This document shows, in pieces, positions 1-345 of a stretch of 345 bases of DNA. Position numbers and translations under genes: made by a program. Each line of letters starts with the position of its first letter. The first letter of the stretch is position 1. The DNA comes from Escherichia coli (GTDB lineage Bacteria; Pseudomonadota; Gammaproteobacteria; Enterobacterales; Enterobacteriaceae): the NCBI RefSeq assembly GCF_003334305.1, contig NZ_QOWS01000083.1. One strand, written 5' to 3'. A model generated the notes under the pieces. The model saw nothing but the letters and a program-made list of their open reading frames with translations. It searched no databases and was not told the DNA's origin.

Positions 1-183
1 TCACGCCTGAAGGGAAAGCTGCACGTTATCAGCAAGCGTTACACTCAGCGCATTGAGCGACATAATCTGAATCTGAGACAACATCTGGCAAGGCTGGGAC
101 GGAAGTTACTGTCGTTCTCAAAATCGGTGGAGTTGCATGACAAGGTCATCGGGCATTATCTGAACATAAAACACTATCAGTAA
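1..183 (+). CDS. insB: IS1 transposase InsB (InsAB' C-terminal part), 3' partial: last 60 codons plus stop
   Basis: Frame 1 is open from position 1 to TAA at 181-183. Manual translation: [60 protein letters not shown]. The ...[23 protein letters not shown] tail matches the IS1 InsB C-terminus as I recall it. The 5' end lies outside the window. Confidence 0.88.
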
Positions 184-198
184 GTTGGAGTCATTACC
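176..198 (+). repeat. IS1 terminal inverted repeat (about 23 bp), overlapping the insB stop codon
   Basis: ATCAGTAAGTTGGAGTCATTACC is the reverse complement of the IS1 end consensus GGTAATGACTCCAACTTA(T/C)TGAT. In IS1 the insB stop lies inside the terminal repeat (established knowledge). Exact repeat length is from memory. Confidence 0.75.
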
Positions 199-268
199 TC
201 CTCCCGAACTCAAAGCTATCATACAGATAATTACTGGTTAACCCTATATAGGGCATTTTAAAGTGTTG
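199..268. other. 70-bp AT-rich non-coding spacer between the IS1 end and the IS3 end; origin unidentified
   Basis: No ORF of meaningful length on either strand. Sequence TCCTCCCGAACTCAAAGCTATCATACAGATAATTACTGGTTAACCCTATATAGGGCATTTTAAAGTGTTG matches neither IS terminus as I recall them. Confidence 0.6.
236..253. repeat. Two overlapping perfect palindromes: GGTTAACC (236-243) and CCCTATATAGGG (242-253)
   Basis: Seen directly: GGTTAACC and CCCTATATAGGG each equal their own reverse complement. Function unknown; could be a protein-binding dyad or coincidental. Confidence 0.5.
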
Positions 269-307
269 TGATCTTACCCAGCAATAGTGGACACGCGGCT
301 AAGTGAG
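269..307 (+). repeat. IS3 left terminal inverted repeat (IRL), approximate extent
   Basis: IS3 has imperfect terminal inverted repeats of roughly 39-40 bp (established knowledge). The inner boundary cannot be confirmed without the right end, so the end coordinate is approximate. Confidence 0.55.
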
Positions 308-320
308 TAAACTCTCAGTC

Positions 321-328
321 AGAGGTGA
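321..328 (+). promoter_or_regulatory. Shine-Dalgarno / ribosome-binding site for IS3 orfA
   Basis: AGAGGTGA contains GAGG at 322-325, 8 nt upstream of the ATG at 334, which is suitable spacing. Confidence 0.55.
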
Positions 329-333
329 CTCAC

Positions 334-345
334 ATGACAAAAACA
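334..345 (+). CDS. insE: IS3 OrfA (transposase N-terminal DNA-binding subunit), 5' partial: first 4 codons only, M-T-K-T
   Basis: ATG ACA AAA ACA directly follows the SD. IS3 OrfA begins MTKT... as I recall, and the K-12 gene name for IS3 orfA is insE. Only 12 nt are inside the window, so the call rests on the IS3 context rather than on the ORF itself. Confidence 0.75.

Follow-up and report, generated by a model that had tools for sequence, protein, structure and literature searches.

Do the short sequences that adjoin two neighbouring insertion sequences record how, and when, these elements arrived? The question is raised by a 345-nucleotide stretch of Escherichia coli DNA (the window, by which this whole stretch is meant throughout), in which the right end of an IS1 element is followed by a 70-bp spacer and by the left end of an IS3 element. 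The outermost bases of the spacer, TCCTCCCGA at 199-207 and TTG at 266-268, had been proposed in the initial annotation as candidate target-site duplications of two simple insertions, which they would serve to date; should their partners be missing at the far ends of the elements, recombination or deletion between IS copies was offered as the origin of the junction. The duplication made by IS3 is usually of 3 bp, which is established knowledge and is the length that had been given there. The length given for IS1, 8-9 bp, is likewise the usual one (PMC12428005).

Two IS ends and an omptin fragment at the edge of the fec island

The window forms the edge of the fec (ferric citrate uptake) island and is a mosaic of the right end of IS1F, an antisense omptin relic and the left end of IS3, the gene order being fecABCDE, fecIR, ykiE, IS1F, 70-bp spacer, IS3. 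Positions 1-198 (plus strand) are the right-end 198 bp of a 768-bp element annotated as 'insertion sequence:IS1F' in K-12 MG1655 (L003 4473-5240). They contain the stop of the transposase frame at 181-183 and the right terminal inverted repeat, whose last bases (191-198) read TCATTACC, position 198 being the terminus. The complete IS1F of record L001, which starts with GGTAATGCTGCC... at its left end, shows 2 differences from that of MG1655 over 768 bp, and it has both the length of about 768 bp and the terminal inverted repeats of an IS1 (GGTAATGCTGCCAACTTACTGAT ... ATCAGTAAGTTGGAGTCATTACC over 768 bp, as in the annotated MG1655 element). It is labelled by PGAP as 'IS1-like element IS1F family transposase', a pseudogene with an internal stop. 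IS1F carries 73 mismatches to the IS1 consensus and its transposition is almost nil (PMC12428005); it is a divergent, essentially inactive IS1 type adjoining fec. A literature search on IS1F in combination with fec returned the description of IS1F in K-12 only, and no account of the omptin relic.

Positions 269-345 (plus strand) are the first 77 bp of an intact IS3 of 1258 bp with TG...CA termini (L001 6269-7526), which reads TGATCTTACCCAGC... from position 269 onward and finishes as ...GGTAGGATCA at its right end. The PGAP label is 'IS3-like element IS3 family transposase, programmed frameshift', the annotated CDS begins at L001 6334, and the termini, the length and the orfA/orfB arrangement with programmed frameshift are all those of IS3. 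Within the window, IS3 comprises its left terminal inverted repeat, followed by a hairpin (303-333) and by the start codon of orfA (334-336). Comparison with annotated genomes bore out the identity of both ends and placed the boundaries, IS1F up to 198 and IS3 from 269, where the initial annotation had them; the letters TCCTCCCGA and TTG, adjoining the two tips, are also as described there. The arms of the hairpin, of 13 nt each, are 85% complementary, and 10 bp are paired in the predicted fold (-12.6 kcal/mol, z -1.8). It is located just 5' of the orfA ATG, with the ribosome-binding-like bases GAGG in its 3' arm, and by analogy with other IS elements it may damp the translation of read-through transcripts. 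A scan of the window against Rfam returned nothing at E <= 1.

The spacer (199-268, minus strand) is an internal fragment of an omptin gene, a nature that went unrecognised in the initial annotation although the limits of the stretch were correctly placed. It is identical at 67/70 nt (95.7%), on the opposite strand, to genes for an 'omptin family outer membrane protease' carried by E. coli virulence plasmids, and it corresponds to nt 580-649 of the CDS, or codons 194-217 of a 317-aa plasmid-type OmpT-like protein (the matching stretch is L004 3001-3070, inside the CDS 2696-3649). Its frame is open over 23 codons, reading QHFKMPYIGLTSNYLYDSFEFGR as compared with QHFKMPYIGLTGNYRYDSFEFGG in the plasmid omptin. 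The relic thus resembles the plasmid gene (ompT-like, from ColV/virulence plasmids such as pS88) closely at codons 194-217 and has kept its frame, but it retains only 70 of the 954 bp and has no start, stop or catalytic residues of a complete, protease-capable omptin CDS; what survives is therefore a dead relic rather than a gene. A 20-aa 'hypothetical protein' is recorded in RefSeq (WP_113705808.1, MPYIGLTSNYLYDSFEFGRR) at window 194-256 on the minus strand; this call is an artefact, in which translation is taken to start at an internal omptin methionine and to continue past the relic into the tip of IS1F. Among the plasmids of E. coli and Shigella, several agree with the window, at 99.2% identity, only as far as base 248, the relic in them having been shortened by some other event.

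The intact omptin gene reads ...AAAC-TCCCCCCGA where the relic has TCCTCCCGA, and at the edge on the IS3 side it reads AAAGTGTTG|TTTGTAGCC, with TTTGTAGCCTATAGC as the sequence that continues beyond TTG. Because the intact gene reads through both positions, the two candidate strings (plus strand) are the outermost surviving omptin bases, nine of them abutting the IS1F tip and three the IS3 tip, and both are unduplicated. Within +-6 kb of the relic no further omptin homology was detected. The adjoining 200 bp of the intact gene, to the left and to the right of the fragment, were located at 745 plasmid places and at only 4 chromosomal places, compared with about 2,100 chromosomal places for the relic fragment itself. 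The remaining omptin halves, together with any second copies of the repeats, have been lost from the relic-bearing chromosomes.

Flanks of IS1F and IS3 in related loci

The flanks of both elements were read base by base in 15 related loci, whereas the genome counts given in this work derive from BLAST coverage. To its left, IS1F is flanked by GGGGATTTC, which belongs to the fec side, in 11 of these loci, K-12 included, and by CTGCAAATC in the other 4, which are the genomes where the module is located beside a decarboxylase/antiporter pair and not beside fec. The right flank of IS1F is TCCTCCCGA, GACCATGTT (K-12) or TGGTTTTTG (ETEC1738). No direct repeat of 8-9 bp occurs at both IS1F ends in any of the 15 loci, and the longest word common to the 40-bp flanks of the element is of 5 bp. 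On the other side of the spacer, the left flanks of IS3 or of IS3-like ends were ...TTG, ...GTG (ST131), GGTAA (AZ159), ...GGA (MS20658) and ...GAC (ETEC4068). The left flank of the intact IS3 is always ...TTG in the eight window-type loci, where no 3-bp direct repeat was found at both ends, since its right flank takes six forms (ATA, GAA, TTT, CTT, TAC and TAA) and was never TTG in the 15 loci read. Even the 13 records that match the window at 345/345 positions comprise at least three types of right flank (ATA, GAA, TTT). In all, not one matching pair of left and right flanks was encountered for IS1F or for IS3 in the 15 loci.

Position alone defines the two strings, and the shorter, a 3-mer, is uninformative; across 184 kb of related loci, TCCTCCCGA was found only at this junction and at one site in the tnpA of IS66, for a chance expectation of ~1.4. 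Because the two strings are absent from the IS1F left end and from the IS3 right end in all 15 loci, TCCTCCCGA and TTG are not target-site duplications in the present sequence, contrary to what had been proposed. The reading of both elements as intact simple insertions, with the 9-bp and 3-bp strings repeated at their far ends, is in keeping with the duplications that IS1 and IS3 normally produce (8-9 bp and 3 bp, as given above) and with the location of both strings exactly at the IS tips, but the far flanks never match, the shared word in the IS1F flanks does not exceed the 5 bp mentioned, and the boundaries are secure, given the 768 bp shared with MG1655 IS1F and the 1258 bp and TG...CA termini of IS3. 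This reading is refuted for the genomes examined and retains practically no probability. Target-site duplications are unusable here for ordering or dating IS1F and IS3.

The partner of TCCTCCCGA might instead be sought farther away, if IS1F were one arm of a composite IS1-fec-IS1 transposon and the second copy lay outside another IS1 beyond fecE. The fec genes do move between chromosomes and plasmids, and in 504838 an 'IS1 family transposase' pseudogene is found ~16 kb off, on the far side of fec and in the same orientation. However, this distal element has no recognisable IS1 ends (with <=3 mismatches allowed) and aligns only weakly and locally to IS1F, and TCCTCCCGA, TCCCCCCGA and GGGGATTTC are all absent from the 22 kb beyond fecB. 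The composite transposon was rejected as very improbable, the distal 'IS1 family' element being unrelated in sequence and the partner 9-mer missing.

Rearrangements anchored at IS termini

Breakpoints in the relatives were located exactly at the terminal base of an IS, one flank being constant and the other variable; the tally of flanks was three right and two left for IS1F, and five left and six right for IS3 or IS3-like ends. The largest case is that of K-12, which is without 27,278 bp of the type strain (L003 5240/5241 as compared with L019, type strain record 4134634-4161913). The gap extends from the IS1F right tip into a GRP-family sugar-transporter gene beside yjhU, the genomes being otherwise collinear, and with this KpLE2 deletion the omptin relic, the IS3-like remnant, an Ag43 gene, toxin-antitoxin genes and mtnK/mtnA were lost. 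In ETEC1738 the IS1F right tip is joined to a third sequence, TGGTTTTTG. At the IS3 tips, AZ159 has lost 833 bp relative to M114, from the IS3 left tip into IS1F, of which bases 1-5 remain (the junction reads GGGGATTTC-GGTAA|TGATCTT); in MS20658 IS3 is joined to a truncated solute-binding gene; 504838 misses 180 bp beside the IS3 right tip, also relative to M114; and 865 bp are missing beside the IS3-like tip of ETEC4068. The DNA missing in the cases of 27,278, 833 and 180 bp is present, contiguous and collinear in relatives. ETEC4068, as the sole fec locus without IS1F among those inspected, was considered as an empty site for IS1F and was discarded, as it represents the 865-bp deletion ending at the IS3-like tip.

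Adjacent deletions mediated by IS1 are classical, for instance those from IS1 in gal and on R plasmids. The K-12 and ETEC1738 arrangements are like them in that they start at an IS1 terminus, keep the IS, leave no repeat and vary in one flank. They differ from the classical deletions in that the events are inferred by comparison and in that IS1F is a low-activity pseudogene, so that deletions of the IS1 type would need transposase acting in trans, from other IS1 copies, or an earlier state in which IS1F was active. The varied neighbours of IS3, joined to it at the terminal TG or CA, are likewise comparable to the products of adjacent deletion by IS3-family elements or of homologous recombination between IS copies, processes that drive the remodelling of islands. 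The KpLE2/fec island of K-12 (PMC12428005) has the same IS1F, the same fec-side flank GGGGATTTC and the same ykiE-fecIR-fecABCDE neighbours as the window type, and differs from window-type and type-strain genomes by the absence of the omptin relic, the IS3-like element and 27 kb of the island.

The position of the intact IS3 is occupied in about 1,650 genomes by a decayed, internally deleted IS3-like remnant, of which about 235 bp survive at the left and about 115 bp at the right. In the type strain ATCC 11775 (L002 6269-6640) the tip of the remnant is identical to IS3 at 66/66 positions and identity then drops to ~86% (23 differences in 169 bp), while window 336-345 matches the true IS3 and not the remnant of most genomes. 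The sharp change of identity near window 335 suggests a conversion or recombination breakpoint. Most likely the intact IS3 would have replaced the remnant through recombination within the shared 66-bp tip, and its right side would later have been reshuffled several more times; unlike other cases of IS3-family remodelling, this replacement would have to rely on a crossover within no more than these 66 identical bp. A chimeric query that represented the GAA-flanked IS3 as a simple GAA/GAA insertion, against a left side of the L009 type, retrieved 0 records. In the ST131 form (L005 4060-4110, NZ_OX637964.1; also L006) 3 bases (TGT/TTG) are missing before the tip, so that the junction reads AAAGTG|TGATC; slippage in the TGTTGT repeat may be the cause. 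Over 38 bp the IS3-like tip of this form shows 2 mismatches, and at base 38 it is interrupted by the terminus of a different IS3-family element, which may be IS629/IS1203-like.

It is very probable, with a likelihood that we would set at about 0.85, that the junction is an IS-end-anchored rearrangement, an old mosaic of IS1F, omptin relic and IS3, and that its two edges are not target-site duplications. At most one flank of each element would represent the original target, and the other, or possibly both, would come from rearrangements starting at an IS terminus. The candidate routes are IS-mediated adjacent deletion (intramolecular, one-ended transposition) and homologous recombination between IS copies, singly or in combination; both are textbook behaviour of IS elements, and neither process leaves matching direct repeats. 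In the sequences compared, transpositional deletion and RecA-type recombination would look alike, and either may have made a given junction. The junction of IS1F, relic and IS3-like element would have been formed once, long ago, after which it would have passed down by inheritance and spread horizontally together with fec. The origin by recombination or deletion between IS copies, which the initial annotation had kept as its fallback, is supported by the lack of repeats and by the IS-tip breakpoints of the relatives.

A tentative alternative, less probable than this rearrangement, is that the two strings are half-footprints. IS1F and IS3 would then have inserted into an intact omptin gene, with duplications of TCC(C/T)CCCGA and TTG respectively, and the outer omptin halves would have been lost later together with the second copies; the reciprocal junctions would read TCCYCCCGA+GGTRATGCTGCCAAC and GGGTAGGATCA+TTGTTTGTAGCC. 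Both strings are indeed omptin sequence at the exact IS tips, an intact omptin gene must once have existed there, and later deletions from IS tips are documented at the locus. However, the number of events required is the same as for inward deletion to omptin by an IS that already lay next to fec or next to the island downstream, no intermediate was found, and other parts of omptin occur at only the 4 chromosomal places mentioned. In its literal form the alternative fails for the intact IS3 of the window, the same junction being occupied by the diverged remnant in about 1,650 genomes. No omptin gene beside fec, whether uninterrupted or singly interrupted, was found, and without such an ancestral arrangement an erased duplication and a direct deletion endpoint would look the same at either junction.

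Distribution of the junction and its meaning for the fec island

Window 185-285, which spans both junctions, is present in 2,065/5,426 complete E. coli genomes. The fec|IS1F junction, searched with the fec flank plus 30 bp of IS1F in the same 5,426 genomes, is present in about 2,705, and the junction with the true IS3 in 22 records. The junction is present too on plasmids of E. coli and Salmonella. Because of this distribution, the junction of IS1F, relic and IS3-like element can be considered old and widespread, and the intact IS3 recent and rare; it is from here that the evidence on age comes, and not from the two strings, which do not date the insertions as had been suggested.

In four genomes (L014-L017, e.g. 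NZ_AP022298.1 1644056-1646143) the module is located beside genes for an Orn/Lys/Arg decarboxylase and a basic amino acid/polyamine antiporter, and not beside fec. Their IS1F variant is of 760 bp, the same as the fec-linked copy of BKQ37E. A chimeric element produced by recombination between two IS1 copies was considered for these antiporter-side copies and rejected, as they are IS1F-like throughout and identical to the BKQ37E copy. A scan of species representatives with the 20-mer CCCTAAAGGATGGGGATTTC gave one match, in a Methanosaeta MAG (L012, MVQH01000051.1 9450-9469) with no other homology, where ~0.5 would be expected by chance; the same scan returned no E. coli record, although the type strain has CCCTAAAGGATGGGGATTTC, and its negatives are to be taken with caution.

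A more far-reaching proposal is that the IS1F-relic-IS3 module acts as a standing recombination hub that repeatedly reshapes and relocates the fec island, which we regard as unlikely. Were it true, the hub would have produced the 27-kb KpLE2 deletion of K-12, would move fec between chromosome and plasmid and would sometimes travel without fec, as beside the genes for decarboxylase and antiporter. In that case the 70-bp relic, which is 100% conserved, could be used in phylogeny as a sign that the mobile fec module arose only once. A regulatory role for the relic or for the hairpin at the IS tip, which would be a stronger version of this proposal, is without support.

The IS biology observed here is ordinary and well understood, and the island is a well-known one; what is added to it is small, namely the omptin origin of the spacer and a catalogue of lineage-specific erosions. 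The junction would represent a single old event, present in about 40% of complete E. coli genomes and eroded differently by lineage, K-12 included, and its variant flanks could serve as markers of fec-island lineages in strain typing.
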